From contig NW_005434536.1 in assembly GCF_000315625.1 (NCBI RefSeq), forward strand, positions 1-64,000: 64,000 bases of DNA. The letters are read 5' to 3'. This stretch comes from Guillardia theta CCMP2712. Lineage: Eukaryota > Protista > Cryptophyta. Positions within the stretch are counted from its first letter, which is position 1. The number at the start of each line of letters is the position of its first letter. Under the pieces are notes generated by a model. The model was not told the origin of the DNA, did no database searches, and saw nothing but the letters and a program-made list of their open reading frames with translations. The position numbers were made by a program, and so were the translations under genes. This document shows positions 22,249 through 64,000 of this stretch, piece by piece.

Positions 22249-22638
22249 ATGAGCATGACCGATTCACAGATCGTGGGGGGCGTCCTGTGCTTCCTTCTTA
22301 CATCCATCGCATACTTCATGCTGTATTACATCTTTGTTTTCCCTGAACTCAAGAAGAGGGATTCGCAGGAGACTTATCTTAGTGTGTGGCACTGTCTGCT
22401 CACCCTCTTCATGGCGGGCGGCGTCGCCCTGACCTTCATTCTCTCCTCGAGCGCCAACGGGGAGCAGCAGCTCGCCTTCTACACAACCCTTGTCTTTGGG
22501 TTGGTGTACTTCTGTTGCAACGAGATCGGCATCACTATCCTTCGGCAGAGTTTGACCAAGCCCATCCCGGATCTGTCTCCCTTCTCCTGGGATGTCGTGC
22601 AGACATACCAGAGGAGGATGACGCGGGATGGGATCTGA
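22249..22638 (+). CDS. Small three-TM membrane protein (129 aa)
   Basis: Three hydrophobic segments; lies directly upstream of the portal-like gene. Confidence 0.75.
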   Translation: MSMTDSQIVGGVLCFLLTSIAYFMLYYIFVFPELKKRDSQETYLSVWHCLLTLFMAGGVALTFILSSSANGEQQLAFYTTLVFGLVYFCCNEIGITILRQSLTKPIPDLSPFSWDVVQTYQRRMTRDGI

Positions 22639-22685
22639 GATGGGGAGGGGATATAACAGCCGCGCGGGCGCCCTGCCCGAGATCG

Positions 22686-24250: not shown

Positions 24251-27200
24251 TCACGGCATCCTCACGACCGCGGCCTGCCCGGCGGGGATTGCGATGTGGA
24301 TGAAGGAGGTGACCCTCCGGTTGGCAGTGAGCCAGTCTGAGAAGGTCGGGGGCCAGTGGTAGGCGGTTCGCATCCAGAAGTAGGAATAACTAGCAAGATC
24401 TGCCTCCCCACACCTTGCCTCCGCGTAGCGAGACGCGATGGAGGTATACAGAAGCAGATTATCGGAGAGCCAGGTTGTTGCCTGGGAGGTGCAGGCCGAG
24501 GGGGAGTCCGGGAGGCGGAGCAGGTCGACCAGACCAATCGTGCTCGTCTGGGTGACGCAGTACATGGGGTAGTCTCTGAAGCAGGCCTTCTGGAATGTAT
24601 CTGAGAGGACGAGGTGGCTGGTACCTTGGGTGAGGAAGACCCTACTCTGGTCCATCAGCCCGCGGATCAGGCCCGGGAGGAGATCGCCGATGGCGTGGAT
24701 GAGGACGATTTCAATCCTTGTCACCCCAGGGACCCCTATCCTGACCGACAGCAGAGAGTCCTGTATCGACTCGGACAAGGAGGGGAATTCAATGCCTGAT
24801 GTGTAAGGTATCCAGGAGCTGTTCAGCCCGAAGCGGAAGGCGGCGGGTAGCTTCCTTTCGTCCACCGAGACGAGGCTCGCCGTGCAGGTTTCCAGGAATT
24901 TCTCTGTAAGGGCCACCCCTGTGAAGGCATAGCCACCTTTCCTGGAAGCCAGCAGGAGGGTGATCCTTGCTGTGTCGAAGTCATGGTAGAGGTGGGGTGT
25001 TTGAAGGACGACGTACATGGGCCAGCCCGGGCGCCAGGTGAAGAGCGTCTCGCAGTGCGTCCCGGCCGTGTTCTGGTCGATGACGACTGCGCCGTGGAGT
25101 GCTGGGCTCGCGGACCAGCACGAAGGGAGTGGAGCCAGGCTTGCGCAGATCCTCTGCTCGTCGATGACATCCCACCCCTTCCAGCCACCGTAGCGGAGGA
25201 TGTAGGTCATGGCCTGGGCCCTTACCAGGAGCTCCTCGTCTCCCTCGAAGACGAAGCGGGCGGCGTATAGGTTCGAGCCTGCGAACCGGTACAGTGAAAG
25301 AGAGAGGTAGGAAACCATCCCCGGCTGCACCTTCTGGATCACCGACATCGAGGCCGACACGCCCCGGCTGTAGCTCACCCTGTGGTAGACCGTGTGGTAC
25401 GTCGTAGATAGTGTAGAGTCTACCTGGATGAACATGGCCGCGATATAGAAGCTGCAGTTCAGCCACCCCTGACCCCAGGGCGTGCAGTTCACGACGGGCT
25501 CCAGCGCGGCGGCGTCGATGGAGAAGCGGTAGAGCCCGCCGTAGGCCGGGGTGAGGTCCATGAAGCCGTACGTGTCCTGCCCGTAGGGGATGTACCTTTC
25601 GTAAAATGCCTTCTCTAGCCGCTCACAATCGCAGGTCCCATTGGGGCAGGCCTGGTACGTGACGGAGAGGGAGGCGGGGAGGAGTTCTTCAGAAGTATCA
25701 CTCTGGATCTCGGAAAGGCAGCACGCCTTGCATTCGACCTCTGGTATGCTCTTAGAAAGATACAGAACAGGGATTGATGTCCCAGAGGTATGTTTGAGCA
25801 GTATACTCCCGGTGATGGCATCATGAAACCCATCACCTGAAACATTTGTGATGATCAGATCGTCAGTGACGGGGGAGAGGAGCTTGGATTCCGGCTGACA
25901 TGCGTCGTAGTCCTCGTCGAGGATGTAGCCCGGGTCGCAGCGGGCCAGGCAGGAGTAGTCGGTGACGAGGTAGTGCTTGGCGATGCTGTCGCTGAGAGGG
26001 CAGGACTGGCAGGGTTGGTCTCCCAGTCCCTTCTTGAAGGAGAGCGTGCCGCAGGGGACGCAGGTCTTCGTAACATTGGCCTTGGAAGCAAGACCGTAAT
26101 CTGGGATACACTTACACATATCACTCGAGTTGGAGGCACTGCTTGCTGTTGTAGTGTAGAGGCCGACGGCTGTGCACGGGCTGCAGAACGAGGAAGCGGG
26201 AAATTCGGAGAAGTAGCCCACCCAACACGAGACGCATACCTCCGCGTTGCTCAGGGAGGGTTTGTAGCTTCCAGGACTGCAAGGACTGCATGTGTCCTCC
26301 CCGATCCTCTCATATCCTGACTCACAGATGCAACCCTCGATGTTCGCGGTGCTAGAGAGGGACAGGGAGTGATTCGGGCAGGGCAGGCAGCTGGTGGAAT
26401 CCACCGCCCCGTACTCGGGCTGGTACGTGTTGAAATCGCAGGAGGAGCAAGGGAGGTTGCTGACGCCGGGTTTGTAATGCCCAGGGTAGCAGGTCCGGCA
26501 GCCCTTCAGAGGTACCAGCGGGTCGATCGGAGTGTTACCCGGGAGGCAGCGGCAGCTCCCTGTGCTCTGGCTTCCCGTAAAGAGCGTCGTCATACCGGAG
26601 GGGCAGGGGACACAGCCTGAAATAATCTCGATTGAGTTCGATGCGTAGTAGCCTTCTTTGCAGGGGGGGCAGGATGCCTGCCCCTGGCCGATGCCGGAGG
26701 TGCCGAGCGGGCAGTATTCGCAGTACAGCGAAGCATTCTCGGGAGTGTAAGACCCCCTCTCGCAGGGACGGCAGGCATCGTTCAGCGTGCTATCCTTGTA
26801 TTTACCAGGTGGGCAGGCCGTGCAGGTCATGTGGTAGCCCCCCGACGCTACTGGCTGCAGTCTGTACTCGTACCCTGGGACGCACCGGCAGTCATACTGG
26901 AACTCCGCCGCGGTCTTGTACGTGATGGAGTTGGCCGGGCAAGCGAGGCACTGGTCGGCTCGGGTGGCGGCTGTGATGGGCTGGTAGGTATCGAAGTCGC
27001 AGGGGATGCACGCGGAGGACCCGTTGGTGTCTTCGTAGAAGCCCGCGGGGCAGGGCTCGCACTTGTGTAGCGCAGGAGAGTCTCCAAAGTAGCCCGGGGG
27101 ACAGGGCTCGCAGAAGAGCATGCCGGGACCCCGGTAGTGCCCTATCAGGCAGGCCACGCACTGGTAGACCCCCGCAACCAGCTGGATCTCGTATCCGTCC

Positions 27201-30200
27201 TCACATACGCAGTCGAAGACGCTGCCTGACACCGCCGGGCTCGTCGAGTTTAGAGGGCAGTCGCGGCAGACGAGACGGAAGTCGTTGGAGTACGTGTTGT
27301 TGTCACAACCGATGCAGACCCGCAGGTCGAAATCGAGGCGGTAGCCGGGCTGGCACCTGACGCAGGCGGTGTACCCGGCCTCGGAGTAGAAGCCCTCCTC
27401 GCAGTCCTTGCAGTGGGTGGCGTTGGCGTCTGCGTAGGTCTGTGGTACGCACTGGAGACAGGAGCTGAAGCCGGGGAGGGAGACCGAGCCCGGGTCGCAG
27501 GGAATGCAGTCACTCGATGCTTCAAGGGAGTAAGTTCCACCCGTGCAGATGAGGCAGGAGGAGGTTCCGGGGGAGGGGGCATGGTAGCCCGCCGAGCAGT
27601 TCTGGCAGGTGAGGGAGGTGTTGGAGCCGTTGGCCTCGGATGCCTTTCCGATCGGGCAGAGGGAGCAGGAGCTCTGTCCAGGTGACTGCTGGAAGCTCCC
27701 CGGGAAGCATGCAAGGCAAGAGGGATTGGCGAGTTCGGGACCGTATGTCCCTGGAAGGCAAGCGATACACTGGAACTGGTCTAACATCTTTATCATCCCG
27801 AAACCGCACTGGATGCATCCCCTGTGTAGTGCATCTTTGAAGAAGCCATCAGGGCAGGGGATGCACGGCCCGCCATCGGGTCCGAAATACCAGCTTTCAC
27901 ATATGCAGTCCGTATTCTTGACGGAAGCTTGCTGGGAGATGGTGTTGTTGGTGCAGGGGAGGCAGTCCGAAGGTTGGGAGGACTGGTTCAGCGGGTTGTA
28001 AGTGTTGACAGGGCACGCCTCGCACACACGGTTGGAAATGGTGTCCTTGTAGTATCCTTTTTGACACACCGTGCACTTCCCTTCCACATATCCAAAGCCT
28101 TCCAAACACTGACAGCCCAGCTCCGACCCGGTTCCCTCCCCGGAGATGCTGTTATCACGGCAGGTCTGGCAGAGGTCTTCTGAGATGGCAGCGGGGATGA
28201 TGCTATAGGTGTTGTTCGGGCAGGGTGTGCATTCAGTGGAGCCGTAGGTTGTCTTGTAGTAACCAATGGGGCAGGCACTACAGTTCCCAAATGCCCCCGT
28301 GTAGCCCGGGTCACAGAGGCATGCCGCAAGGGTGGCCTTCATCGAATTGAAACTCGTGCTATGCGGGGGGCATTCCAGGCAGGATCCTATCGAATCCGCC
28401 GCGAGGGTGTCGGAGTAGCGGCCGTCCGGGCAGATCTCACACGGCAGGTCGCCCTGCGCGTCTTTGTAGGTTCCGACGGGACAGGGGGAGCAGGCCTGCC
28501 CATCCCTGCCGAAGTGACCATGGGTGCAGCGGCATCCTGTGATGTTACCTGTATGATTATCACTGGTGGTATTATCGGGACACTTCTGACAGTCACTCTC
28601 TGCCACGGTTGTCGCCTTCTCCGAGTACGTTCCCGCTGGGCAGGCGTCACAGACACTCTGGTTGTAGTCCACGGAGTAGTAACCGGGCCCGCACTCCCGG
28701 CAGACGAAAGTGATGCCACCGTCCATGGTGTAGTAACCCGGGACGCAGCTGCAGTTTGATACAGACGAGGAGCCATTGCTGGAGACTGCATTGGAAGGGC
28801 ACTTAATGCATTGATCGATGCTGGAGGCTCCGAGCAAATCCAGGAATGTATCCTCCGGGCACTTCAGACAGCGGTCGGTGCTGGTAGAGACGGACTTGTA
28901 AGTCCCAGGTTTGCAGGCATGGCAATCGCCGGAGCTGTACTCATATCCGGGGTCACAAAGGCACTCTGAACGGTAGACCGAACCCGGGAGAGAAGTGGAG
29001 TTGGGTTGGCACGCCTTGCACACTGTAAGACCCCGCTCATCCGCGTAGGTATCATTAGAGCAGATCGCGCAGGATCCGTTGCCAAATGTTGTCTTGCTGT
29101 AGCCCTTGTCGCACTGCGTGCACTGCAGGCTTCCATCTTGAATCACACCAAAGAACCCCGGGTTGCAAAGGCAAGATGCAATATCGATCGCCAGCCTTGT
29201 GCTGTTCCCTACACAGGCAACGCAGTTGGAGCGGCTCGAAGACGGAGACACAGTGGAGTACTGGTTGTCCCCACATGCAGTGCAGCTGAAATGATTGAAG
29301 GACTCTGTGTAGAACCCCGGTGGGCAGGGCTCGCAGGTATCGTTTCGACGGGAGTAACCTGGCACGCAGAGGCACTGCGCGAGGAGGGAAGTGCCCGATG
29401 GAGACCGGGTGTTGGCGGGACACGCGCGGCACTCACTCGAGTTGATGATCCCCGTTTTAGGAAGGTAGGTGTTTTCCGGACAAGGTGAGCAGGGGACGGT
29501 CTCCCTGGCATCCTTCCAGTATCCCGCAGGGCAGGGCTGGCAGTCGCTGTTGTTGTAGGATCCATAGCCGCGTTCGCATAGGCAATCATCTAGCGATTTC
29601 GATTGCACGTGAGAGTAGGTGTTGGCGGGGCATTCACTTGGGGTAATTGTATTGCGGTCGGGGCAGTATGTGAGCTCGGGGCACGGGACGCAATCCCCGG
29701 ACATGTCGATGCGGTAACCAGCCGGGCAGAAGCATTCCGTCACATATACCGCATTGCCATCCGACTGAAAACGATTGGGGCAGAGGGTGCAGTTGCCCCC
29801 ACCCGTCCCGTAATGGTTTCTAGGGCAAGAAATGCAGGTATACTTCAAGGCCTCTGGATCGGAGTAGTAACCCTGGTCGCAAGTGCATGAGCTCGAACCT
29901 GGTGGACTCGAGCTGTGCTTTGTGCAGTTCTCTATAACCCCATTGGTACAAAACGCATTGGCAGGGCACAGGAGGCACTCGGTGGTGAAGACGTTGAGTG
30001 AGTAGTACCCTTCAAAGCACGTGCAAAAGAAGTTACTTTGCGAGTTGGGAGGAGAGGTGGAGAATTCCGGGCACTTGACTTGTATCTCGTTGAAGCAGTA
30101 GGAGCCGGCGGGGCAGTCGATGCAGATGGCGCACTCGCAGTAGAGGCCGTTGCCGCGGAAGTTCTCGTTGCACTCGCAGGTGAAGCTCCCTGGGGTGTTG

Positions 30201-33200
30201 GTGCAGGTGGCGTCCCTGCTGCAGCCGGCGGTGCCGAGCTCGCACTCGTCGATGTCGAGGCAGGAGCTGTTGGACGCGTCGAGGGTGAAACCGGGCTCGC
30301 ACTCGCAGCGGTAGGCTCCATCGAGGTCGATGCAGACAGAGTTTTCGAAGCAAGGGTCTCCCGCGCACTCATCGAGGTTGACGCAGAGGCCCGTGCTGGG
30401 GTCTTCGCCGTAGCCTTCAATGCAGCTGCACCCGAAGCTTCCAACCGTGTCGGTGCAGACGGAGCTGATCGGGCAGGGCGCTACTGCCGCGGCGCATTCG
30501 TTAAGGTTTACGCAGGCAGCTTCGGATAGGCTGTAGTAGTAGCCTTCTTTGCAAAAGCACATGAATGAACCCTGGGTGTTTTCGCAGAAGCTCACGTTCT
30601 TGTCGCAAGTGTCGGTCCCCTGCCTGCACTCGTCGACATCCTGGCACTGCCCGATGATGGGGTACCAGCCCGAGAGGCAGGTGCAGGTGTAAGACCCGAA
30701 AGTGTTGGTGCAGAAGGAATTGAGCGGACAGGGGCTTGCTAGAGTCGTGCACTCATCCATGTCTGTGCATTCCACTCCATTGGTAGAAGCTTCGAATCCC
30801 GTGATACATTCACAGGACTCTAGGGAGGCTGAAGCAATGGTTGGAGTGGAAGTGTACATGGGGCAAGCCGTGCAGGCGCCATTGCCGGTGGTGTCCTTGT
30901 AGAAGCTGACATTGCAGTGAGAGCAAGTGTCCCCCACCCTCGCATAGCCGACGTCGCAGAGGCAATCGGAGATGGCTACCGATCCCGCCAAGGAGAAGGA
31001 GTGGTCGGGGCAGACAAGGCATAAATCCGAGCGGTTAGCACCTAGGGAGGGCTGGAAGGTGTCTTTCGGGCAGATCTGGCAGGGGAGCATGGAGGTAATA
31101 GCCTTGAAAGATCCCATGGGGCACTCCTGGCAGTAGCTGGAAGACCCTGGCTCGAAGCCGGGCTTGCAGACGCAGGTGTCTTCGCTTGTGCTCCCTGCCG
31201 GACTGACGCTCCCGGCGGGGCACTCCTGGCAGTCGTCCATGGTGGTGGAAGCCAGGTATGGCTGGTATGTGTTGGGTGGGCAGAGGTCGCAGAGAGAGGG
31301 GCCGGGGAGGGTCTTGTACGACCCAGACGGGCAGGCCGCACACTCTCCGCCGTCCGCCCCGGTGTAGCCCGGCTGGCAGCGGCAGGTCCCGAGGGTGTCT
31401 TTCAGGCCTGACGACTGGGAGTTGTCAGGGCAGGGGGTGCAGGCCTCGTTGCCGATGGTCTCCTTGTAGGACTTGGAATCGCAGGGAGAGCAGTCCTCGT
31501 TCGCGTCCCTGGTCCTCCCCGCAATGCAGACACAGCTGGAAGCGCTGGCTTGTCCCTCCTGGTTCGTGGAGAAATCGGGACATAGCGTGCAGGCCCCCGA
31601 TCCGACTTGAGGCTTGAATTTCCCCGCCTCGCATGCCGTGCAATCGTACCCGCCCGGCCCAGTGTAGCCCGGCTCGCACTCGCATGCGGTGGGAGAGGTA
31701 GCGGCGGGCCGGTTCGAGCGCGAGTGCAGCGGGCAGAGCGGGCAGGTCGAGTAGGCGGCGACCTCGCACAGCCTCAGTCCGGAGTTCAGAGAGGGGGCGC
31801 TGACGGTGAAGAAGGTACCCACCAGCGAGCACGCGAATGTGATCGGTGCCCCACCCGCGAGAGAGACGTAGCTCCCGCAGAAGGGGCTGACAGTGAAGTC
31901 GGTGAAGTTGCCCACGTTGACGTCGATTCCAGTCAAGGAGCAGTCGGTGCAGCTCTGGAGTGTGACGAGGGAGAGCAACTGCGGGCTCTGGAACGAGACC
32001 TGCAGCCAGGGGATCATTTCCGTCCCGGTCTCGGCACAGGTGGCCGTGCTTCCGTCCATGGCGTTGCCTGCTGCATTCACCGTAGTGGAAAGTGCTGCAG
32101 ATGCCCATGATTGATTCAGGAGGTTCATAAGGCTGAATTCCCCGTGGTTGGGTTTGTAGCTGTTGGTAGGGCAAGGGGAGCAGGGCCCGCCGTCCGGGCC
32201 GGTGTACCCAGGGAGGCACTTGCAGGCTTCAGCCCCCACCCCCGCCTGGGTGAGGCTGGTGGAGTTTTCGGGGCAAGGCAGGCAGCTCCCGCCATCCTCG
32301 TACTCCCCGGCACGGCAGGCCACGCAGGTGGGGACGCCGTCGACCCGGGTGGATTCATTGAAACCCCTGTTGCAGGCACAATCCAGGGGGGAGTCCGACT
32401 GTTGGGGGGAGAAGGAGTCTGCTGGGCAGGACAGGCAAGCGCTGAACCCAGACCCGTTGGAGTACCTCCCCGCATCGCACTGCGCGCAAGGCCCGCCTCC
32501 CGGCCCGTAGAACCCGGCTTTGCAGAGGCAGAGGGACTGGGCGGCGCTCCCGGGCTGGCTGTCGGAGTCGTCTGGGCACGGCAGGCAAGCGTAGTCGCCA
32601 GTCAGGGATTTGTACTTCCCGGAAGGGCACGCCTCGCACTCCACCCCGTTCTGCCCGTAGTACCCAGGCATGCACGCGCAAGAGGAGAGTAACGGGGAGG
32701 CAGAGGGGCTGGTGGAGTTGGCAGGGCAGCGCTTGCAGGACACCTGCCCGTCGTCGTTGTAGAAGCCGGCCCGGCAGGCCGTGCATCCCACAATGCCGCT
32801 GCCCTCGTAGCCCGGGTTGCAGCGGCACTGCGTGACGTCGGCCGCTCCCTGGGGGCTGGTGGAGTCGTCCGGGCACGGCGTACAGGCCTGGTCCCCCGTG
32901 GAGTCCTTGTACTTGCCCGCATCGCACGCCACGCAGAGCCCGAGGAGGCTGGTGTAGCCGCGGTCGCAGACGCACATGTCAACGTTCGTAGAGGCAGGAG
33001 CAGAAATCGTCCGCTCAGGGCACCGGCTGCAGGGGTTCTGGCTTATGCTGGCCTTGTAGGTGTAGGGAGGGCAGGCCTTGCACACACCGTTGACATCCGG
33101 GCTGTAGCCGGGTTTGCAGCGGCAGGAGTTGGGAGTGGCGCTACCCGCGGTTAGGGTGGTCATGTTTTCTGGGCACTTACTGCAGATCTGGCCGGTGCCG

Positions 33201-36200: not shown

Positions 36201-39200
36201 AACTGGTACCCTGGTGTGCACACGCAGTCGGAGGCCGAGGTGGAGCCGCGGGAGACCGTAGTCAGCATGAGCGGGCAGGGGGAGCACAGCACCGAGCCGT
36301 TGGTTTCCTTGTAGGATCCAAAGTCACACTCGGTGCAGACCGCCCCGTTCCCTCCCGTCCATCCAATGGGGCAGAAGCACTTGGCAAGGCGGGTGGAGCC
36401 TGGGAGGCTGGTTGAGCCTTCGGGGCAAGCCTGACATGAAGTGCTCCCGTTGAAAGGGTTGTACTTGCCGGCAGGGCACTGCAGACACTCACCAGCGGAA
36501 AAGTAATAGCCCTGGTAGCACTTGCAGTCCGTCCTGCTCTTGCTCCCCAGGATGCTCCACGAGTAGGGCGGGCACCTCTCACAGACCTTCGCCCCGTTCT
36601 TGTCGTTGTAAGTACCGGTCGGGCATTGATAACAATAATCCACGGAAATCGTATAAAAACCCGGGAGGCAGTAGCACGAGCTCTTGTTGACGTTGCCCTC
36701 CAAACTCCAGCTGAAGGGCGGGCAGAGCGTGCAAGCGCCGTTCCCCGTGCTCTCCTTCCAGCGGCCCTCCGGGCAGGGCTGGCACGTCCCGTCGGGCTCG
36801 CGGGTGTAGCCCGGTCCGCACATGCAGTTCAGAATCGTCGTGCTCGCCATGGGGCCTTGCAAACCCAGGCTCGGGCACTGCGTGCAGGGAAGATTCCCGA
36901 TCGTGTCCTTGTAGTACCCCGGAGTACAGGCACGACAACCATACGGCCCGATGCCGCCATACCCTGCGATGCAGACGCAGTCGTACATGGAGCGCTCGGA
37001 TGAGCCTGTCGTGGTGTTCAGAGGGCACTGTGTACAGGCAGCAACGTTGCCCGGGGAGAAGAAACCCGGGGCGCAGTCAATACAAGAAGAGGAGGCATCG
37101 GAGGGAGAGAACTGCCCCGGTGGGCATTCAGTACAGTCACTTGGTCCCGTGAATGGCTTGAAGGTCCCGGCGGGGCAGGCCGTGCAGCTTCCAATGTTGG
37201 TACCGGAGTATCCCCTATCACAGATGCATGCCGTCCCATCGCTGCTGATCACCCCGTTGACGCAGAGTGTACATGGGAAATTCCCAGCCTGGGCCTTGTA
37301 GTGCCCTTCCTGGCAAGGAAAACAGTTCCCCTCCGTGTCCGGCTCGAAGGCCGGGAGGCACACACAGTCGAAGGGGGAGTCGGAACCGGTCTGCAGGGTT
37401 GTCTTCGTGACCAGGCATTCCCTGCACTGGCTCGCCCCGGCCACGGCCTTGAACGTCCCCAGCGGGCACGGCCTGCACACAGCGCCCAGCACCGCGTCGA
37501 TCTCCTGGCCGGTGCCCGGAGCACAAAGGCAATCATCAGAAGAAGACGCGGCGACTACCTCCGTGATGAAACTATCAGGACACAGCTCACACGCCGTCTG
37601 GCCTGCATTGGACTGGTAGGTCCCGGAAGGGCAATCCTTGCACTCCCCACCCGCCGACAGCCCGAAGTACCCGGCATTGCAAGAGCACGCAGAAAGGGAG
37701 ATGCTCCCTGCGGGAGAGGTGGAGTGAGCCGGGCACTTCAAGCAGTCACTGTACAGCGCCGTGGTTGTCGTCTTGTAGGTATTCACCGGGCAGTTGACAC
37801 AGCTGTTTTGCAAGGCGTAGGTGCCCGCCGCGCAAATCGAGAGGTAGCAGTTTCCCTGTGTATGCACATACCCTGCATTGCAATTGCACTGCCGCTGGTC
37901 CACCACTCCTTCTCCCAGCGTGCTGGAGGTCGGGCAGGGTCTACAGATCGACTCGATGTTGAAATCCACGCTGATGTCACTATAGTCTATCTTAAAGATG
38001 TTCACTTGGATACACCTAATCCCATTGCTCTTCAGGAAGTAGAATCCAGAGATGTCCACCCCTGTGAAGGAGAAAGCATCGTAGGCCACCATCCCCGTAC
38101 AGTCAGCGGCAGTGGAGTAGTTCATCTCAAAGCGGTTCGCACTGCCGTAGCTCAGGAGGAGGTTCTCCACCGAGATCAGTGAGTCCGTCAGAGAACCGCG
38201 GATAGTGACGGTACAGTGCCGTCCGAAATCATTTACGCTGGACAGCACAGTGAATTGCATAGTGGGGGATGATATCACCCCCCGCGAACAAAAGCCGTCA
38301 AAAGTCACCATGTTGTACACGATGCTGTTGTATCCCGAGAAGGTATTGGCAGGACAAACGCAGCCTGCAATGCCTTGAGCCCCAGTGAAGCCGGGAGGGC
38401 AGGCACTGCAGGTCAGACCATCGAAAGAGAACGTGCCATTTGGGCAGGAGATGCATGATCCATCATTTTCCTTCATACCATACAGGCAGAAGCATTCTGA
38501 TAGGGAGCTTGCGTATGCAGTTGACCACATGTTAGGATCGGGACAAGCCGTGCATGATAATGAATCAGAGGAAATTTCAAGTGGCTTGAGAGAGTCACCC
38601 GTCTTCAGATGCAGGAGGAGTGTATACATGACAGTGTCCATCTCATCGCTCGACAAACCCTGGTCCCATATGTACATCTCACTGAATGCAAAGTTACCTC
38701 TGTAATTTTTTTCAATGTTGATCCCCATGTACGTACCCCCATAACCTCCGTTCTCAGTTCCGATATTGTCAATTTGCAATGGATCGGAGAGCATCGCAGT
38801 CTTGATATTGTAGGGTTTAGACACCCCTCCGTTTGTGCCACATATCACCATCCAGTCGTCTTGTAAGGGACTGGCGTACTGGCCTGATATTGATGTCATC
38901 CACTTTATGTAATGTGCGACACCCACCTTTCCGTTATTCCATCCATGAAACCAATAGAAATCCGTTCTGGAATACTTTCGTATCCCAAAAAAGATATAAT
39001 TTCTTGGGTTACTAGTATACCTCGCAACAGAACATACTGTAAACGTTTCAGGTACGCTGCCGGGTGGAAAGGTGACCGTTGTTTGGTATGTACCCATCAC
39101 ATACCATATGTCCCCCAAAGCCCCGTTACCATTTCCCTTATCATGAGTGATCGTTCCACCTGTGAAGTTGGCATCGGGTTGTTGATTAAGAGAATCAGAG

Positions 39201-41466
39201 ATGGTTCCATTACTGTAGTCTTCTGCATGGTATATAGCCCATGGCCGTTTGTTTTTTAAAAGATTGTTAAAATTCTTGTAGGTCTGTACGCTGTAGTAAG
39301 AATTCCATGGATTATAAGTATATTCCCCTAATGCACACGGTGTGCAGACAGAAGCATCCGAGGTGATTTCACCGGTGAACCCGGCCTTGCAGTAGCAGTC
39401 AGTCACGGAGGTGCTTCCTAACAGGCTGGTAGCGTTTCCAGGGCAGCTGTAGCACGATGGATACAACCCAAGTAGCTGTGCACGATACGTTCCTGCAGGG
39501 CAGGTGATACACTTGAAGTTGTTGCAACCTTCACACTCGAATTGGTACTTGATCACCTGGTTGGAAGCGCAGCTGTCACATTCCGGCCTGTAGGTTACAC
39601 AGTTTTCACACGGAGCTGATCCAATGGTTATCTTGAAGGTGCCGGTAGGGCACACTGTGCAAGCCTGGCTCCCGTCCACCCCCGTGTACCCCACATTGCA
39701 CACACACCCCAGTGAGGAACTAGTACCCCGGTTCCGCGTGGTACTCTCTCCCGTGCAGGCCACACAGTCACTCCCGGTGGTAGACCCGGTCGAAGTCAGG
39801 TACTTCCCAAAATCGCAGGCTGTGCAGACGGCGTCGTTGGAAATGGTATCTTTGTAATGACCCGCTGGGCAAGACATGCACACGCCCTCCTGCGGCGCGT
39901 AGAAACCAGGCTGGCAGAGGCAGTCCCGTAATTTGGACGCACCCGTTATTACAGTCTGCGAGTGGGACCCGCACTGAATGCATGATGTCTGCATGCTCTT
40001 ATCCTGGTAGGTATTTGCAGGACAGACGGCGCAAGATTTTCCTACTATTCGTGTACCCGGCACGCAGAAGGTGTAGCAGTCTTCGTTTGAAGTCGACCCC
40101 GTGTTATCTGTGCTCTTTCCGCTCTCACAGGTGGTGCACGCCGTCTGCGCGGGCGAGCTGGCGTAGGATCCTACAGGGCAGTCCTGGCATGTGAGGGAGG
40201 AGGTGCCGAACTGGCCTGCAGGGCAGGGGTAACAGCTGTCTCCAATGGGATAGTACCCTTGATTGCAGACACATATGTATGACATTCCCGACGCTTGCAG
40301 CAAGCTGTTCTCTTGGCAAGGGATACATTGTGATGAAGAGGTCGACCCTATTGCTCGGGTATAGGATTGAGAGGGGCACGGTGTGCATTTCGATTCGTGG
40401 CTTAGGGAGGTCTTGTAGGTCGCAGCAGGACAGGCAATACATGTGTCTTTAAGTTCGATAACCCCCACCGAAAAGTATGTGTTCCGGTAATACCCGGGGA
40501 TGCACATGCATGATTGTTGCGAAGTACTCCCCGTATCGGAGGTTGACTTGTAAGAATCACATTTGGTGCACTTCTGGTTGGACATTTCACCTTTGTACCA
40601 CCCCACTGGCAGGCCGTACAGCTGCCACTCACCAGCTCATACCCAGCCACGCACATGCAAGAAGACACACCCAGTCGGCTCCCCGACACTGTTCCCGTGT
40701 TGTCCGGGCAGTTCGTGCAAGTTCCCGATGAAAATTTGGAACACCCGCTGAGGTACTGTTTATCACTGCAAGAATCTGCATAAGTGCTACAGCTTATGCA
40801 TGTCCCCGCGGTGCCACCCCCACAGCCCACCAACACGTGGTCCGCGGGACAATTCACCGAGGCGCAGCTCTTGCAGGGGGACTGGATCGAGTCGGTGCAC
40901 TGCTCGTAGTAGAAACCCGAGGAGCAGGAGCACGGAAGGCATGTTCCACTTGAAAGGCCACCACAGCCACTCTTGTAAAATCCAGAAGGGCAGTCATTGC
41001 AACTCAAACAGCCTACATACTGCCGCGTAAAGTACTTGTTGATTACGTGCACCATACTATTGAACCATTGAAAGGCACCGCAGCTCGGGGTGAAGCACTG
41101 GGTGTCTCTTGTACCCGTGCAACTGTCTAGGACCGCAAGCTGGCCCCCGCCGCATCCGCTGCATAATCGGCAAAAACTCAAACTCTGGTAGTTTGGTTCG
41201 TAGGTGTATCCACGGTTGCATGCACACCCCACCCGGATGACGCTCTTGTACTTGGGAGAGCACCAGATTATAAAACAACTCTCTCCATCCGGAACACTTG
41301 TATATCCCCATTCATAGATGTATGCATTGTATGCACAGATAGCAATGGAATTAGCCTTGATCAAGTCCACCCAGTCCTTTTCAAAAATTCGAAAAAAATC
41401 GGATCCATGGACTATGCATACACAACAGAAAAAAAAAACATAGAGCGCACACACCCTGCTCTTCAT
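24251..41466 (-). CDS. Giant secreted Cys-rich repeat protein (~5,738 aa once one frameshift near 40601-40604 is repaired)
   Basis: ORF 40402..41466 carries the signal peptide and ORF 24251..40606 continues it. Many ephrin-receptor-like/GCC2-GCC3 repeats (CxxCPxGxY...CxCxxG). LamG-like domains at ~38580-39270 and ~35450-35990, an F5/8-fucolectin-like domain at ~31750-32130, five Ca-binding EGF repeats at ~30140-30770, and a unique C-terminal ~530 aa. Confidence 0.85.
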
Positions 41467-41544
41467 CCCCTTTCACAGCCGCGGCGAGTGGGTTTCAGGC
41501 TTATATGCAGGCGGGTAGCTCGGGGCTATTTTATTTAATTCCAA

Positions 41545-53131: not shown

Positions 53132-53196
53132 TATACCTCTCTACTCTTCCCAGATTTATTCTCTTAAATGCACCCACCAATAACTATGACGCCATA

Positions 53197-56580: not shown

Positions 56581-56678
56581 TTTCCTCACCTAGAATCACC
56601 TACATGTCTTAAATGTCCTGCATGGCACCCCTGGATGCAAAAAAGAAGAGCATTTATTGTCAATATATTTTGTAAAAT

Positions 56679-57467: not shown

Positions 57468-57525
57468 CACTCTCCTACACTCACAAGGGCTATGCAACCA
57501 GGCGTATATACCACTTTCTTTTTGT

Positions 57526-60500
57526 CTAGCACTGTGCCGGGCAGTAGAACCCCGCTGGGCAGGGCTGGCAAGTATCGAGACCTACCCTGTAGTAGCCCGG
57601 TTCACAGGAACACTGGTTGAGGGATATGGCACCCACGAAACTGGTGGCAAAGATGGGACACCATTGGCAGGTCGCACCGTCTGGGCTGTATTTGCCCGGT
57701 TGGCAGAGTCGGCATATGTGCAGAGAGTCACTGGAACCGGGATTGCATATCGAGCAGCGGCGGATGCTGTTGTCTACGTCGTACTGGTCCATAATATTGT
57801 CACTGTCAGAATCCATTGAACGAGGACTGATGTTCCATTTCTTGGAGAGATACATATGGGTCGAAGTCATTTGCGAGCTGTTCAGTTTTTTGTTGAAGAC
57901 TAGAATCTCTTGGAGGTAGCCTTCGAATAAGCCCCCGACCTCAATGTACCCATTCGCCGTGGAGACCATCTGTGGGATGGCGGTGGGGTTGCCTGGCTTC
58001 CCGTTGACAAAAACTCTCGAGTAACTCGTCGAATCCATATACCCGCTCAAAATAATGCGGTCCCCAGTCAAGTCAATACGGGGGACGGTCTGCGTGGAAG
58101 AGGAGCTACCGCGGGTGTAGGCAAGTTGCGTTTCCGAGAGGTGTACCCCCTGCTGGACACTGTCGGCATTATCCAGAGAGGTTAGTAGCGTGGCAACCAA
58201 GTTGGTGGGCTTCAGGGTGATAAAGAAGGTGATCTGCTGGGGTAGTGGGGGAGTGAGGTCCGACCGGTAGTGCGATGCATTAAGATAGAACCACACCCCC
58301 TGGTCTGTCAGGTACGGTGTGTGGTCACGTGCGGGGGTAAAGACACGGCTGTACACCCCGAGATCCTTCCACTCCGTCACATAACCATTCGCACGATACA
58401 ATCCATCGTTGCCGAATCCATCCACATTTCTAGAATCCAACCACAGAACGAGGGAGGCCGGGTCGATGCCTGAGGCTGTCTTGCTGATGCCATTGATATT
58501 GGACACGATGTCACCCAGGATTGGTCTCTGGCAATGATCCAATGTGCAAAAGTCACCAGAATAAGAACCATTCATCGACGTGAGACCCGTCGCACACTCG
58601 AAGCAGCCATCGATGCGCATCTTCCTGATTCTGTTGTTGCCCTGGTCTGACACAACTGCATATCGCCCATCTCTGGTAATTGCAACGCCCCACGGGAGAT
58701 TGAACTGGGCGATGCTGGCATTGTTGTCGTCTAGGTATCCGGGATTGGCGGATCCAGCAATGGTCTTCACTTCCAGGGAGTCCAGATCCACCCACCTCAC
58801 CGAATGATCTTTGCTGTCGGCGACCAGCAGAAACTTCCCATCCAGGCTTATGGCAACGCCAGTGGGTTCGTAGAACTGTGCATTGGTACCAATACCATCA
58901 TTCAAACCCGAGACCCCATTCCCAACAAGATCATGACACGTATCTGGAATCTGCCAGTCCACATGCTTGATCGAGTGGTGGGACTTACACGCAATATAGG
59001 CATGGCTCCCAACTAGGTCCAACCCAGCGGGAATCATCGTTGGAGACCCCGCCGGGACAGCCACGATGGAACTCACAGCTCCCGTCTGGAGGTTGATCTT
59101 TCGCATGTGATCCGTGTCGACAACAACAAGCCAGTGGTCATTGTCCCCCAGCGCGGCACCCCTTGGGAGGTTGAACCTGGTGTTGGTGGTGGTAGACCCA
59201 ACGCTCGACGTTGTCACCGTGTCGGTGCAGAGGCCCGCAAACGTACTGACCTCGGCAGTCTTCAGATCAATCTTCCTGATACAATTATTGCCATTATCAA
59301 CGACAAACGCAACAGTCTCGTCCTGTGTGAGAGTGACATCAATCGGAAGTCGAAATTGCGCCCCAATCCCAACCGCATCGATGTATCCCGCAGTTTTTTG
59401 TCCCGCCAATGTGATTGTGTAGCCTGTCTCCAGATCGACCTTTCGTATCGCATTGTTGGCACCATCAGCGACCAGGATGAAAGTCTCCCCACACATTAGA
59501 TTATAGGGAGTGTCAAACCTCGCAAACTCCCCAGGACCATCCCGAAGATCCGCCCAGCCATCCCCAGCCAAGGTCCTGACATCCCACATGTTAGTCAGAG
59601 TGCCATTCCCGTAGAAACCTTCACGGCAGGGGCTTTGGGGTTTGCAGAAATCGATGGAAGTGCTCACAATAGGTGGGCTGACGGTGCCATCTGGGCACTT
59701 CTTGTACATACCCTCGGTCTCACCTCCAAAGTAGTCGATCCACTCATTTGTGTTGGGCTGGCAGAAACTTTTCCCATTTGCCCCCTTGATCGTCACATCG
59801 TTCCCACTGCAAGGGACACAACTGGTGCCATCAAAGTAAGTATTTGCTTCACACTCACTCGGATAGACACAATCATTAATAGACCGGGCCCTAAACCCCG
59901 CACTAATACTCGCATTTGGACAGGGGAGACAATTCCCCGTGGTCGTATCCACGTATTGGTTCATCGGGCACTCATTCTGTTTGCAATAACACTGCGAGGC
60001 TGCCTCGACAGGACTCCAGCTCCCCGGAGGGCAGAATTTGTGCTTGATCTTGATGATTATGATACCAGAGCCTCCACTACCACCTGCCCCAATCCCGCCA
60101 CCTCCGCCACCTCCAGTGCTGGGGATTGCGTTGCCACCCCAACAATACCCATATCTACATCCACTTCCACCACCACCTTTACCTCCACCCGATGGACCCG
60201 CGTAGTACCCACTGCCACCACCACCACCCGCCCAGTAACGCTCATACCCATCGATGTTGATCGGTATACCATCCCCACCACCAGTGTAAGGCCAACCATG
60301 CGCAGCGTCTCCACCCACCCCACCTGCGCCACCACCGCCTGCACCAACGATCGGGGAGGCCCAGTAGGTGCCGGCACCTCCTTTGTTTGCATACCCCGAC
60401 ACATTTGATGAATTCAGTGGTGAGTGCGATGGTATCAAGCCAAACACCGCTTCCCCATCCTTTCCCTCCATACCACTGGATCCACCTGCCCCTGTTTGTC

Positions 60501-63500
60501 CTTTCCCTGCTGTTCCTCCATACGCAGTTGCATAAAATATAGACGATGGCTGCCCATTGGCCCATTGACCACCACCAGCACCGACAACAGCAGTGTATGC
60601 TCCAGCCGGGACAGTCACATCCCGAGCATATATGACACCTCCACCCCCCCCACCCGCACTACCCCCGCCTCCTCCACTACCTCCGCCTCCACCCCCAACA
60701 ATGAGCACATCCAGGACAACATCCGAGTCAAAGGTGAAATCGTGATCAGTTTGCAGTCCGTTCCCATCATACCGGAAATAGTAGAGTGCTTTTCCTTCGA
60801 CCAGGTTCACAAAGCTTTCTGGTATTGCGTCGCACCCAGTGTCGCTGGTCGCCGCGGTGCCCGCAGGAGACAAGGGACTGTCAACAGGGCAGAGCTGACA
60901 AGACCCAGTCGAGTTGGTGTACCCCTCGGAACATTTCGACGTGCAGTTGCATCTAGAAGGGGCTTGGCCAGGGAGAGACGTGGTGCCAGGGGGACAGGAA
61001 TAGCAACCGTAAACCTCGATCTCCGACAGTTCATAATTAATCGTGTAGCTTGGTTGTCTGAACCAGATGTATCTTCCTGACAGCTCGCAGGACACATTCT
61101 TCTGCTCTCCGTTGTACGTGAATGTGATCTCGTCCGCACACTGAACGTTGTTGCTGTAAATGGCGTTGTCATATCCTATCCAGATCGTGGTCAACCCCCG
61201 CTCTGGGACATTCCGATACTGAGAAGCCCACAACCTGACAAATTGTATGTTTACCACACTCTCAAGATCGATAATGAAGTAGCCCTGCTGATTGCCAGTG
61301 TAGAAATTCGTAGTATTGTCAGTGTCAATCAGCGGCAATGGGTCCCCGCTCGATGTGGTGATTGGGCACAGCTCGTTTCCCAACGCGCCACATCTCTGCT
61401 GCAGCTGGAACTGTCCATAATACCCACTCGGACACTTGTAAAGACACGTCGCAGCACTGACCGATCCCCAATACCCCCTTGTATCCTGCCCGACTAAGCA
61501 GCTCTTGCAAAAAGTGCTCCCCACCGTGTCCTGATACGTATCCGGGCCGCAAATGCTGCAAGCCGTGGCCCCGCTCACATTCGAGTAGTACCCGGCAGGG
61601 CAGTCCATGCAGCCATCCTTGGTCCCGATCGAGTACTTCCCGGGCACGCAGGCGGGACAGGCGGAGATGGTGGCACGGCGTAGGCGGTTCCATTCTGTAA
61701 AGTACAGATACTCACCATCGTATGAAGTGGCAATACCAGCAACGTTGCCAACTAATGAGTTGTTGCCCAATACAGCATCAGCATACAGCATTAATCCATT
61801 TCCCACAACTGAAGTGTATGTTTTGGACGATATATTTAGAATGTATATGCGGTATGAAGTCGATCCAGCAGCTGCTATCACGTTTGAATGAACCAGTGAA
61901 TTGGTTTGTTGAATGTTTGCGTCTGTTACCATGGTGACCGATACAGTTGAAGACACCAAGTCATAAACATATGTATTGCCATTGCTGCAAGAGGCTGTAA
62001 TGCTGTCTGAATATAAGAACGAAATTCCTCTACATTGTACATAGAATGTGTACAATGTAACAACAGTTTTAGTTGATACCACTACACGTCGCAGTCTGCC
62101 ACTGTTTGAATCCAATATCAAGAAAGAATTCCCGTCTTTATCCCACACCATGTCAAAAACGACATCCAAACGACTATTTGTACCTACGCCATCATCCACC
62201 GATGTCAAAAGTGCAGTCTGACCACAATAACCAACAAACATCTCCACTTGTTGTGGCGTGCTGAAATCACCATTGCAGAGTACACGCATAATACACTTTG
62301 AATCATAAAGATTAAAATAGATATTGTTTGATTCTGCATCAATCAAAGCAACATGTGGTCTTGTCATAGTAAAACCAGACCCGTCCGAATTGACCAACGA
62401 CAATGTAAATAACTTTGATTGTTGTGTGTCATAAACCTTTAAAACAGTACCAGAGTAAGTTCCAACTACAACATATCTGTCATTTGCGCATATTTTTGAT
62501 TCACCGCTGTTTTCAGCAATTGTCTGCACATCCCACAAGGAATCAATCTGGGGTCTGGGACCTGTTCCCCCGGGGCAGTACACCCCCTGCGAGCACTTCA
62601 CGGCGCCGGGGCCGGAGTAGGTATTCAGGGGACATGTTGTAGATCCAAACACAATGAACTCATCGATATTGATTGCTGCAGGGTTTGCATCATTTTTGAA
62701 TCCCCATACGTAACGCCCATAGATATTGCAGTCTATCGTGTGAAAATCATCTGTGCTTGGATTGAAAAGGCCACAGTATTGATTTTCTGAATAAACCTCA
62801 CTGTTATTACCAATCCAGATTTCCATGTAGGCTTTATTTGCAAAACTCAATCTCGGCTTATTCACAATGTGATTAACAAAACGAACTTGACCCAAGTCAA
62901 TCTCAAACCAGTACGCGGTCTGCATCGTTTGATCGCCATCTCTATCGGGTGGAAGCAAAATGGAATTTTGTAAAGCCAAAACACGATTCAATATTGTGTA
63001 TGGATTCCTTGAAATGTATTGGTTTGTCCATGTGGACCCCACATAAGCACCCACTGAACTATATTGTCGAAAGCGACACATTTCATTACTTCCTTCACCA
63101 CACTTCAACGACCAATCCATCATCCTCCCTGTGCTCGAATAGGTATTCGCGGGAGTCACCGGCGGCTCATAGTCAACCATGTAACAATCTGTGTAATTTG
63201 TACTGCCCATATACTCCGTGGTGGTGCCAGCGGGGCAGCGAAGGCAGGTATTCGTACCACTTCCATCATCATAGTATCCGATATCACATAGTATAACAGG
63301 AATCGAATAATGTTGTTCCACGTCAAATTGAGTGAATGGAAAATCGTAAACTCGAAAATCATCCAAATAATAACCCATAGTAGACCCCATCAATTTATAC
63401 ACTGTATTGCCCCCTAAGTTAAGAAAATTAAAATATTCTCGTTGCGCACTTTGAACGCCGTCAATGTAAATAAAGACATCTCCATTGTTTTCAGGTTCTT

Positions 63501-64000
63501 CAGAAGTGAAAACCATATGATGCCATTTTCCGTCCCTCGTCACCAAAGAAGGTATTATTGAATCTGAATAAAAACCTGCACCATATGTTGCACCAATATG
63601 CCCCTCCGTTGACATTGTAGATATTGTGAATCGATAAAATTCACTATTACCAACTCCAAGTTGAAAGATATTGTCATTGATACTTGTTCCAGCAGGTACA
63701 AGTATCCAAAAAGCTATGGAATTGCCGATTTTAAACAAATCTTCAAAATCTACCGTTGTTGGTATGAGCAACTCAGACGAAATTGGAAAATATGCTGATT
63801 TACTACCTATTAAACCTGGAGAATGTGAACGAACACCTGTATTGATTGCATTATTTCCATTGCCAGAAATATCTTTTCCCAAATCCCCCGCATCCTCAAA
63901 CTGATAACTAACCACCGGCGCATAATCCACGCACTGGCTGACAGAAGTCGCGCCGACTGAATTTGTGGTGGTCATGTGGGGGCAGCGACTACAGGGGTCA
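57526..64000 (-). CDS. Large multidomain adhesin-like protein, 5'-truncated by the window edge (>2,150 aa)
   Basis: The frame stays open to the edge (DPCSRCPHMTTT). Order: LamG-like, F5/8-like, NHL propeller, second F5/8-like, Gly-rich domain (LIVGGGGGG...GSGGSGIIII), NHL repeats (DGIGTNAQFYEPTGVA), second LamG-like, separated by Cys repeats. Confidence 0.9.
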   Translation of the reverse strand, partial: DPCSRCPHMTTTNSVGATSVSQCVDYAPVVSYQFEDAGDLGKDISGNGNNAINTGVRSHSPGLIGSKSAYFPISSELLIPTTVDFEDLFKIGNSIAFWILVPAGTSINDNIFQLGVGNSEFYRFTISTMSTEGHIGATYGAGFYSDSIIPSLVTRDGKWHHMVFTSEEPENNGDVFIYIDGVQSAQREYFNFLNLGGNTVYKLMGSTMGYYLDDFRVYDFPFTQFDVEQHYSIPVILCDIGYYDDGSGTNTCLRCPAGTTTEYMGSTNYTDCYMVDYEPPVTPANTYSSTGRMMDWSLKCGEGSNEMCRFRQYSSVGAYVGSTWTNQYISRNPYTILNRVLALQNSILLPPDRDGDQTMQTAYWFEIDLGQVRFVNHIVNKPRLSFANKAYMEIWIGNNSEVYSENQYCGLFNPSTDDFHTIDCNIYGRYVWGFKNDANPAAINIDEFIVFGSTTCPLNTYSGPGAVKCSQGVYCPGGTGPRPQIDSLWDVQTIAENSGESKICANDRYVVVGTYSGTVLKVYDTQQSKLFTLSLVNSDGSGFTMTRPHVALIDAESNNIYFNLYDSKCIMRVLCNGDFSTPQQVEMFVGYCGQTALLTSVDDGVGTNSRLDVVFDMVWDKDGNSFLILDSNSGRLRRVVVSTKTVVTLYTFYVQCRGISFLYSDSITASCSNGNTYVYDLVSSTVSVTMVTDANIQQTNSLVHSNVIAAAGSTSYRIYILNISSKTYTSVVGNGLMLYADAVLGNNSLVGNVAGIATSYDGEYLYFTEWNRLRRATISACPACVPGKYSIGTKDGCMDCPAGYYSNVSGATACSICGPDTYQDTVGSTFCKSCLVGQDTRGYWGSVSAATCLYKCPSGYYGQFQLQQRCGALGNELCPITTSSGDPLPLIDTDNTTNFYTGNQQGYFIIDLESVVNIQFVRLWASQYRNVPERGLTTIWIGYDNAIYSNNVQCADEITFTYNGEQKNVSCELSGRYIWFRQPSYTINYELSEIEVYGCYSCPPGTTSLPGQAPSRCNCTSKCSEGYTNSTGSCQLCPVDSPLSPAGTAATSDTGCDAIPESFVNLVEGKALYYFRYDGNGLQTDHDFTFDSDVVLDVLIVGGGGGGSGGGGGSAGGGGGGVIYARDVTVPAGAYTAVVGAGGGQWANGQPSSIFYATAYGGTAGKGQTGAGGSSGMEGKDGEAVFGLIPSHSPLNSSNVSGYANKGGAGTYWASPIVGAGGGGAGGVGGDAAHGWPYTGGGDGIPINIDGYERYWAGGGGGSGYYAGPSGGGKGGGGSGCRYGYCWGGNAIPSTGGGGGGGIGAGGSGGSGIIIIKIKHKFCPPGSWSPVEAASQCYCKQNECPMNQYVDTTTGNCLPCPNASISAGFRARSINDCVYPSECEANTYFDGTSCVPCSGNDVTIKGANGKSFCQPNTNEWIDYFGGETEGMYKKCPDGTVSPPIVSTSIDFCKPQSPCREGFYGNGTLTNMWDVRTLAGDGWADLRDGPGEFARFDTPYNLMCGETFILVADGANNAIRKVDLETGYTITLAGQKTAGYIDAVGIGAQFRLPIDVTLTQDETVAFVVDNGNNCIRKIDLKTAEVSTFAGLCTDTVTTSSVGSTTTNTRFNLPRGAALGDNDHWLVVVDTDHMRKINLQTGAVSSIVAVPAGSPTMIPAGLDLVGSHAYIACKSHHSIKHVDWQIPDTCHDLVGNGVSGLNDGIGTNAQFYEPTGVAISLDGKFLLVADSKDHSVRWVDLDSLEVKTIAGSANPGYLDDNNASIAQFNLPWGVAITRDGRYAVVSDQGNNRIRKMRIDGCFECATGLTSMNGSYSGDFCTLDHCQRPILGDIVSNINGISKTASGIDPASLVLWLDSRNVDGFGNDGLYRANGYVTEWKDLGVYSRVFTPARDHTPYLTDQGVWFYLNASHYRSDLTPPLPQQITFFITLKPTNLVATLLTSLDNADSVQQGVHLSETQLAYTRGSSSSTQTVPRIDLTGDRIILSGYMDSTSYSRVFVNGKPGNPTAIPQMVSTANGYIEVGGLFEGYLQEILVFNKKLNSSQMTSTHMYLSKKWNISPRSMDSDSDNIMDQYDVDNSIRRCSICNPGSSDSLHICRLCQPGKYSPDGATCQWCPIFATSFVGAISLNQCSCEPGYYRVGLDTCQPCPAGFYCPAQC

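Follow-up and report, generated by a model that had tools for sequence, protein, structure and literature searches.

Mirusviruses are protist-infecting relatives of herpesviruses. The envelope glycoproteins of herpesviruses, like the viral TNFR-like decoys, carry signal peptides and are disulfide-rich and extracellular; F-type lectins bind fucose through a His...Arg-x-Asp...Arg/Lys motif; and attachment proteins typically gain and lose domains. The closest solved rod to the proteins described here is that of the Chlamydomonas mastigoneme protein MST1. Its Cys rod measures 26 nm for 678 aa, and the protein polymerizes via Cys domains into an extracellular filament (PMC11015965, available excerpt).

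Long genes of Cys repeats are already tabulated for many mirusviruses. In the seen rows of supplementary table MOESM9 of PMC12768974, orthogroups with the Ephrin_rec_like repeat (PF07699) occur in 524 genomes (OG0000001) and 386 genomes (OG0000009); these groups may lump unlike proteins, since OG0000000 of the same table unites terminase, ubiquitin and TBP. MIRUS_G_0022 has nine such genes, the last ending at 242,640, which total 42.7 kb by our own sum over the rows, and one such gene of MIRUS_G_0001 is 25,128 nt long. Like the genes described below, the tabulated ones are multi-kb, intron-poor Cys-repeat genes with fucolectin-like fold matches, a likeness of annotation and not of sequence, but they are scattered, whereas here five lie head to tail. 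The literature searched does not discuss them. The main text of PMC12768974 has no hit for ephrin, cysteine or lectin, the texts of PMC13524828, PMC10132985 and PMC11465185 have none for ephrin or cysteine, and no title or abstract opening describes a mirusvirus Cys-rod family. Nor did the mirusvirus literature searched hold an account of how these viruses recognize and enter their hosts.

We analyzed a 64,000-nt stretch of DNA from the cryptophyte Guillardia theta (the window), in which all long ORFs between 24251 and 64000 lie on the minus strand. This battery occupies 62.1% of the window, in agreement with the co-orientation and the share of over 60% given by an earlier reading of the letters alone (the sequence-only reading), and it is 99.2% coding, with gaps of 58–98 bp between genes and 17 bp between gene E and the portal stop (Table 1). 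As it stands, the battery holds eight ORFs (2157, open at the 5′ end, 262, 1127, 1098, 1759, 993, 354 and 5444 aa), and the five genes of that reading, A to E, appear only when three one-base frame breaks are bridged. Its proteins of ~3862 and ~5738 aa are likewise absent as single ORFs; D and E come to 3859 and 5737 aa when they are read through the breaks with X. Genes A–E run without evident introns, gene E including a 16.3-kb ORF. A TATA-like word lies 34–46 bp upstream of genes C, D and E, the portal and the terminase (five of six tested, against 0.4 expected on shuffles), a pattern picked after sight of the upstream sequences. Recent tandem amplification of the battery genes was rejected, the only DNA-level self-match being one pair at 65% identity, between the 5′ parts of genes B and D.

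Table 1. Positions of the features discussed, numbered from the first letter of the window
Feature	Length	Position	Strand	Remarks
Terminase ATPase, N-terminal half		17977..18654	+	Walker A-like motif; GT splice donor at 18655
Portal protein	515 aa	22686..24233	+	Tail to tail with gene E
Gene E	about 5737 aa	24251..41466	-	Two ORFs (354 and 5444 aa), frame bridged
C-terminal tail domain of gene E		24254..25993	-	Lineage-specific; predicted beta-rich (low confidence)
LamG-like cassette of gene E	250 aa	38558..39307	-	Missing from both long homologues, P0022 and P0023
Gene D	about 3860 aa	41545..53131	-	Three ORFs (1098, 1759, 993 aa), frames bridged
Gene C	1127 aa	53197..56580	-	Signal-like N terminus, Cys modules throughout
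Gene B	262 aa	56679..57467	-	Signal-like N terminus, F5/8 (fucolectin-like fold) module, short Cys tail
Gene A	>2157 aa	57526..63999	-	5′ end outside the window; ORF and Pfam

Pfam finds Ephrin_rec_like above cut-off in all battery ORFs except those of 262 and 354 aa, with scores of 52.9–617 bits against a gathering cut-off of 23.1 in A, C, D and E and nothing in B. It also detects Laminin_G_3, F5_F8_type_C_2, EGF_CA, NHL and Gly_rich_2, that is, every domain type previously placed among the Cys repeats. The long stalks of the sequence-only reading do not extend to gene A, which is only 3.7% Cys and consists mostly of globular domains (LamG, two F5/8-like, two NHL- or propeller-like regions, Gly_rich_2 and a second LamG-like domain) with short Cys modules between them; its two LamG-like domains show weak similarity to PHROG families labeled ‘virion structural protein’ (E = 1–3 × 10−4). 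Gene C is 13% Cys and free of insert domains, and gene D runs from an F5/8 head through a Cys stalk, a propeller-like region and one EGF-Ca repeat to a Gly-rich region. Gene E joins a Cys stalk (569 Cys) to four insert domains, five EGF-Ca repeats and a conserved tail domain, with 66 N-glycosylation sequons in its 5444-aa ORF. The signal peptides claimed for the four complete genes agree with their hydrophobic N termini (best 12-mer hydropathy 2.55–2.96), a hydropathy measure only, and because no 19-mer beyond the N terminus exceeds 1.72, proteins A–E have no evident TM anchor, C-terminal or otherwise.

A search with the stalk profile finds the Cys rod of MST1 (8tx1, E = 9 × 10−14). Like MST1, the battery rods are predicted to be secreted, anchor-less and disulfide-braced, with the same class of repeat and with β-sandwich domains. 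MST1 differs in being cellular, in having a rod of 678 aa as against about 4600 here, and in its nine Ig domains and glycosylated C-terminal polyproline helix, the latter absent from the translations of A–E. A match of the gene D head to eel fucolectin 1K12 (E = 0.002) and hits of the battery to PF22633 indicate, by sequence, the F5/8-type jelly-roll fold of F-type lectins; the fucose motif of the latter is found in none of six F5/8 modules, of which five come from the window and one is from P0023. The ‘lectin modules’ described earlier thus stand as a label for a predicted fold, not for an activity. A–E show no traits of Eph and TNF receptors, neither a TM-like segment nor a kinase or death domain having been found, and in a comparison with ZP-type proteins (uromodulin), in which a C-terminal ZP module follows EGF-Ca repeats, EGF-Ca is present and the tail is poorly modeled, with no Pfam match at E 0.5. 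The battery proteins resemble the herpesvirus glycoproteins and TNFR-like decoys in being viral, disulfide-rich and predicted to be extracellular, with signal-like N termini, but they lack a TM anchor, are ten to twenty times longer and show none of the fusion-protein features of the former.

The only full-length homologues of gene E are gene models of the G. theta assembly, whose scaffolds measure 41.7 and 35.2 kb. P0022 is collinear with gene E over 4575 residues at 77.6% identity and keeps 478 of 481 Cys; P0023 is collinear over 5144 residues at 41.0% identity (34.5% at non-Cys positions) and keeps 522 of 541. By these alignments, the relatives of gene E keep its Cys modules as a chain in the same order, and the cultured alga has at least three diverged versions of this largest gene. 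Judged in the same way, stalk loops hold inserted jelly-roll domains, of which one or more have been gained or lost between relatives. The 250-aa cassette has a GC3 of 0.48 against 0.61 and 0.65 in its flanks, and its closest labeled Atlas clusters are viral (0.97–0.98). It finds one match in viral contigs, which led to no syntenic locus, and none among 50,697 phage records or in the second LamG-like domain of gene A. A single ‘socket’ loop is not supported as a strict rule, as 29 gaps of ≥70 aa are spread over 13 loop classes, the commonest with 6.

The tail domain of gene E, a candidate docking or assembly module, has no match in Pfam (to E 0.5), NCBIfam, PHROGs or the Atlas (scores of at most 0.78), and the fold matches of its model (pLDDT 36.8) are meaningless. 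It has three matches among 1.84 billion representatives: P0024 (90%) lies on a JGI metagenomic contig of 67,380 bp, a length recorded as well for the contig that carries a near-identical portal (P0010) and terminase half (P0012); P0025 (about 40%) comes from a contig of 9.5 kb; and P0026 belongs to Hanusia phi, in which two portal homologues also occur. The tail was found only with portal-bearing or cryptophyte sequences; no relatives of 964–2750 aa were found. An alignment search with the stalk matched only two near-identical giant-virus contigs (27% GC), whose multi-TM, Cys-repeat protein of 1978 aa (25% identity to the stalk) was rejected as an orthologue of gene E, the match lying at the level of the repeat.

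The adjoining gene, called a portal by the sequence-only reading, proves to be one by fold: all 33 of the PDB matches listed for its model (pLDDT 57) are viral portal or neck structures, among them those of phages (best E = 3.4 × 10−4; Foldseek). It has homologues in two cryptophytes and metagenomic relatives at 97%. The nearby terminase half has only weak PHROG terminase matches (E = 0.04 and 0.12), and its GT donor, accompanied by a branch-like site, marks the point where four of four full-length relatives begin to drift; the nuclease half was not recognized in the 64-kb window. Mirusvirus terminases are often split between ATPase and nuclease and trans-spliced near Walker B (PMC12768974, sections seen). 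Because a true portal lies near a putative split terminase ATPase half, we assign the element to the mirusvirus type, and the portal relatives in two cryptophytes together with the spliceosomal donor indicate a eukaryotic, not a phage-type, host. The battery genes sit in this portal- and terminase-bearing element. An HK97-fold major capsid protein, triplex proteins and a maturation protease were not recognized within the window; the available portion of PMC10827195 reports a mirusvirus MCP, triplex 2 and maturation protease (clade E03) from the G. theta assembly, scores it as portal-absent and does not describe gene content or Cys-rod proteins. Window ORFs at 16300–24002 match G. theta gene model P0011 almost letter for letter, with differences at the splice joints of the model.

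The extracellular viral apparatus proposed earlier therefore holds as virus-encoded, predicted extracellular rods, but a cluster that is singular or tied to the portal is not supported. The four mirusvirus genomes seen in the table of PMC12768974 have 9, 2, 0 and 0 scattered PF07699 genes; one lies 436 bp from the portal in the nine-gene genome, and both are far from it in the two-gene genome. Viral contigs scanned with the portal, tail and terminase yielded no syntenic relatives, and metagenome scans gave a single portal contig, of 2.3 kb, that ends just past the portal.

Our main reading, to which we give a probability of roughly 0.5, is that these are genes of a cryptophyte mirusvirus whose products, predicted to be secreted, disulfide-braced rods, serve as attachment fibers on or around the released particle. 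Each gene would be expressed late from its own TATA-like promoter, and the chains, led by signal peptides, would pass through the ER and are predicted to acquire their disulfides and N-glycans there. The resulting stiff rods, if scaled from the MST1 structure, would reach a length of some 180 nm in E, 110 nm in D and 40 nm in C. Jelly-roll domains inserted in their loops may bind surface glycans or proteins and so vary what the fiber binds, and the anchor-less rods could dock onto enveloped virions at the cell surface by the conserved tail domain or by rod–rod pairing. The nucleus appears to be the site where mirusvirus particles bud; they seem to acquire an envelope-like layer and to gather outside the plasma membrane (PMC12606086, available excerpt). 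Points against fibers are the lack of any anchor, TM or otherwise, in contrast to the envelope glycoproteins of herpesviruses, the missing fucose motif, a portal linkage that is not conserved across the four genomes tabulated, and the frame breaks in D and E, which with the shifted end of P0022 fit decay.

The breaks, which the sequence-only reading passed over, are all −1 and fall within 50141–49837 and 44688–44627 in gene D and 40636–40404 in gene E (at about 49,950, 44,690 and 40,610). Bridging them is justified because the pieces downstream lack strong signal-like N termini (best 12-mers 0.02, 1.53 and 1.02), because past two breaks the old frame drops to a GC3 of 0.33 whereas the new one has 0.58 and 0.72, the third being uninformative, and because P0023 aligns across the third break, in gene E. 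With odds somewhat below even, this copy is a decaying endogenous element with genuine breaks, in which D and E have become pseudogenes and any function is left to free relatives. No XXXYYYZ slippery heptamer occurs at any break and no frame-restoring GT-AG/branch-point intron at two of the three, the P0022 model skips 181 aa to end in an alternate frame, and cryptophyte mirusvirus sequences are termed endogenous in the seen part of PMC11465185. Sequencing error is nevertheless plausible, because a nearby 332-bp array of the same assembly has three single-base deletions in about 3.3 kb and the sequence beside an N gap is poor. The bridged frames, moreover, contain no premature stop over 39 kb, the 97% portal relatives are present in metagenomes, and the other ORFs, 15.7 kb in all, show no evident break, although only 1.2 would be expected there (P = 0.30). 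Decay is compatible with either function, virion fiber or host coat.

The latter, that the alga, during infection or latency, secretes the proteins to make up a coat, a hair-like filament or a matrix on its own surface and not a part of the virion, we regard as rather unlikely. The roles proposed for such a coat are adhesion, aggregation, grazing defense and a decoy against superinfection. It would suit proteins without a membrane anchor whose closest solved counterpart polymerizes outside the cell, and the predicted rods exceed the AurliV particle of ~140 nm (PMC12606086, available excerpt). The two particle-making Aurantiochytrium mirusviruses, the only ones with particle proteomics, are tabulated in the supplements without any ephrin-like annotation, so mirusvirus virions in general can do without Cys-rod fibers. 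Attachment fibers are instead suggested, weakly, by the promoter-like word common to genes C–E, portal and terminase and by the resemblance of insert domains to virion structural proteins, and also by the domain gain and loss.

It is very unlikely that the genes belong to the host, or were recently captured from it as passengers, and merely happen to lie beside a viral insertion; this view is largely refuted. The Ephrin_rec_like family is common across eukaryotes, and the sole full-length homologues of gene E are models from the alga’s own assembly. But a 16.3-kb ORF without evident intron, in a battery that is 99% coding and ends 17 bp from a true portal, is not what the ordinary intron-rich host genes named by the sequence-only reading as its refutation would look like; the tail sits on a metagenomic contig of the same size as the portal/terminase contig, PF07699 is widespread in environmental mirusvirus genomes, and the repeats are old. 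Least probable of all is programmed recoding or splicing that toggles short and long forms, for although all three breaks are −1, the viral terminase carries a spliceosomal donor and 13 GT-AG candidates with a branch-like word would restore frame at the first gene D break, programmed frameshifting was rejected for want of any slippery heptamer, the other two breaks offer no intron candidate, and at the gene E break the repeats are spaced too closely to accommodate one.

Some mirusviruses, then, spend tens of kilobases on one family of Cys rods predicted to be secreted, about 40 kb here and about 18% of one complete genome. We tentatively propose, as a possibility well short of even odds, that mirusviruses recognize their hosts with an apparatus of giant glycoprotein rods that lack an anchor, mature in the secretory pathway of the host, equal or exceed the capsid in length and bear exchangeable jelly-roll cassettes in their loops. 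Such a family may occur in a large share of mirusvirus genomes and could set host range. Attachment and coat can be told apart in a cultured cryptophyte. If the rods coat the alga, the virus remodels its host’s surface on an unusual scale; if they are attachment fibers, they would be the first candidate host-range apparatus of the phylum, unlike the glycoproteins of herpesviruses.

The minus strand carries every long ORF of the Cys-repeat battery (genes A–E), as the sequence-only reading had proposed, and the measured span takes up 62.1% of the window, in line with the >60% claimed for it, and is 99.2% coding. The five genes counted there stand once frame changes are bridged; the sequence itself holds eight ORFs, and sizes close to the earlier ~3862 and ~5738 aa for genes D and E are obtained only by reading through with X. 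Five genes is nevertheless the right reading, given that the downstream pieces of D and E have weak N-terminal hydropathy (0.02–1.53 versus 2.55–2.96 for genes B–E) and codon bias sits in the new frame after two of the three breaks. Pfam recovers the domains previously listed (ephrin-receptor-like Cys repeats, LamG, F5/8, EGF-Ca, NHL and Gly-rich), and a hydropathy scan of genes A–E finds no TM-like segment outside the N termini, in agreement with the claimed lack of an anchor. GC3 in gene A is very uneven (0.26–0.68 per 100 codons), which suggests, from composition, a mosaic of recently acquired domains.

Features of the window and of two giant-virus contigs
Feature	Position	Strand	Description
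Tandem array	5-5597		332-bp unit, at least 15 copies, 98% identical; N gap 3700-4365
Cys protein	10786-12474	-	562 aa
ORFs matching P0011	16300-24002	+	
Repeat protein	16300-17886	+	528 aa
Terminase ATPase half	17977		ORF, then GT donor
Candidate intron	18655-18739	+	85 bp, GT-AG, branch-like site
Battery	24251-64000	-	genes A–E
Cassette in gene E	38558-39307		250 aa
Gene A	57526-63999	-	single ORF, 5' end beyond window
Gene B		-	262 aa, single ORF
Gene C		-	1127 aa, single ORF
Gene D		-	three ORFs, -1 frame changes between; 3859 aa with X
Gene E		-	two ORFs, -1 frame change between; 5737 aa with X
L002 and L003 protein	8687-14623	+	1978 aa

No slippery site lies at any of the three breaks, and only the first break of gene D offers intron candidates. 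Three single-base deletions in ~3.3 kb of a nearby tandem array make assembly error plausible; decay is plausible too, since P0022, a Guillardia theta model related to gene E, terminates in a shifted frame. That D and E are truly broken in this copy is a serious possibility, put a little below even, and a question separate from function.

Gene E is collinear with P0022 (41.7-kb scaffold; 77.6% identity, 478 of 481 cysteines kept) and with a second G. theta model, P0023 (35.2-kb scaffold; 41.0%, 522 of 541), so that an ordered chain of ~5,400 residues is preserved across deep divergence. The 250-aa cassette, inside a loop of gene E, is missing from both models, has lower GC3 than its flanks and shows LamG-like features; other inserts in this gene are shared with them. 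Inserts spread over several loop classes rather than a single socket. The C-terminal tail domain of gene E has three further matches among 1.84 billion representatives: P0024 (90%, 255 aa) on a 67,380-bp JGI contig, P0025 (~40%) on a 9.5-kb contig, and P0026 (56%, 81 aa) from Hanusia phi. A near-identical portal and terminase half are assigned to a contig that is also 67,380 bp long, and we infer that P0024 lies on it too; a contig end or a break may account for the shortness of P0024.

We give a probability of about 0.5 to the reading that the battery genes are expressed late and that their products would be secreted as disulfide-braced rods, docking on released particles without a membrane anchor and displaying variable binding domains. 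The main rival, in which they coat the infected alga or form a matrix around it, seems rather unlikely. The F5/8 modules are fucolectin-like by sequence match, and the fucose motif is kept in none of six. The battery stalk matches the Cys rod of the Chlamydomonas mastigoneme protein MST1, given as 26 nm for 678 aa in PMC11015965; by extrapolation, rods would reach ~177 nm (E), 114 nm (D) and 42 nm (C). Elsewhere in the window, the 562-aa Cys protein, with no Pfam match and low GC3 (0.33), has a signal-like N terminus, a C-terminal TM-like segment (hydropathy 2.69) and Cys repeats (18, 37 and 55 aa) whose copies are nearly identical; such a membrane-anchored protein could serve as a docking partner.

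The portal proposed as the battery's neighbor is upheld by a 515-aa ORF, 17 bp from the gene E stop, whose predicted fold resembles tailed-virus portals and which has relatives in metagenomes (up to 97%) and in the cryptophyte H. phi. Relatives of the terminase ATPase half agree up to its GT donor and drift beyond, in keeping with PMC12768974, where most mirusvirus orders are said to have a terminase that is split and joined by trans-splicing. The candidate intron follows this exon, a short closed frame comes next, and the intron end is a candidate default acceptor beside the trans-splice donor. The plus-strand ORFs match P0011, a G. theta model on a 176-kb scaffold, nearly letter for letter, differing at splice joints; this public model is a 2194-aa fusion of five separate viral ORFs, including terminase half and portal. 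PMC10827195 lists its assembly with clade E03 mirusvirus markers and scores the portal absent there. No capsid gene was recognized within the window. From the portal fold and its relatives, the terminase half, the P0011 match and the E03 markers, the element is a cryptophyte mirusvirus; a host origin of the battery genes is very improbable. The 528-aa protein combines an acidic run with a 13-aa Lys/Glu/Gln/Pro repeat present in 9.4 copies, and no family was found for it. The 332-bp array, with several 8–16-bp palindromes and a T-run/TATA-like stretch, could by its sequence be a terminal repeat or latent-origin-like array; an EBNA1-like gene is tabulated for another mirusvirus (PMC12768974).

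The supplementary gene table of PMC12768974 covers four mirusvirus genomes and holds 11 genes with PF07699 (Ephrin_rec_like): nine in MIRUS_G_0022 and two in MIRUS_G_0001, where one intronless gene measures 25,128 nt; the other two genomes have no such gene. Most belong to an orthogroup spanning 524 genomes, and one is separated from a portal by 436 bp that include a small ORF (PMC12768974). The main text of that paper does not mention such genes, and the Aurantiochytrium virus tables contain none. Whereas these genes are scattered, ours are packed; given the scatter and the orthogroup, the battery is not unique as a structure but is a dense example of an accessory family that is widespread and undescribed, and its portal adjacency is weak evidence. 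Two giant-virus contigs (L002 and L003, 27% GC) encode a protein of the battery's repeat class but in anchored form: its start is signal-like, and it carries several TM-like segments as well as Cys repeats.

The rod family is large, unexplained and open to testing in a cultured alga; it is made of known modules and already tabulated. If the H. phi sequence set is, as we presume, transcriptome-derived, portal and fiber relatives would be transcribed in culture.
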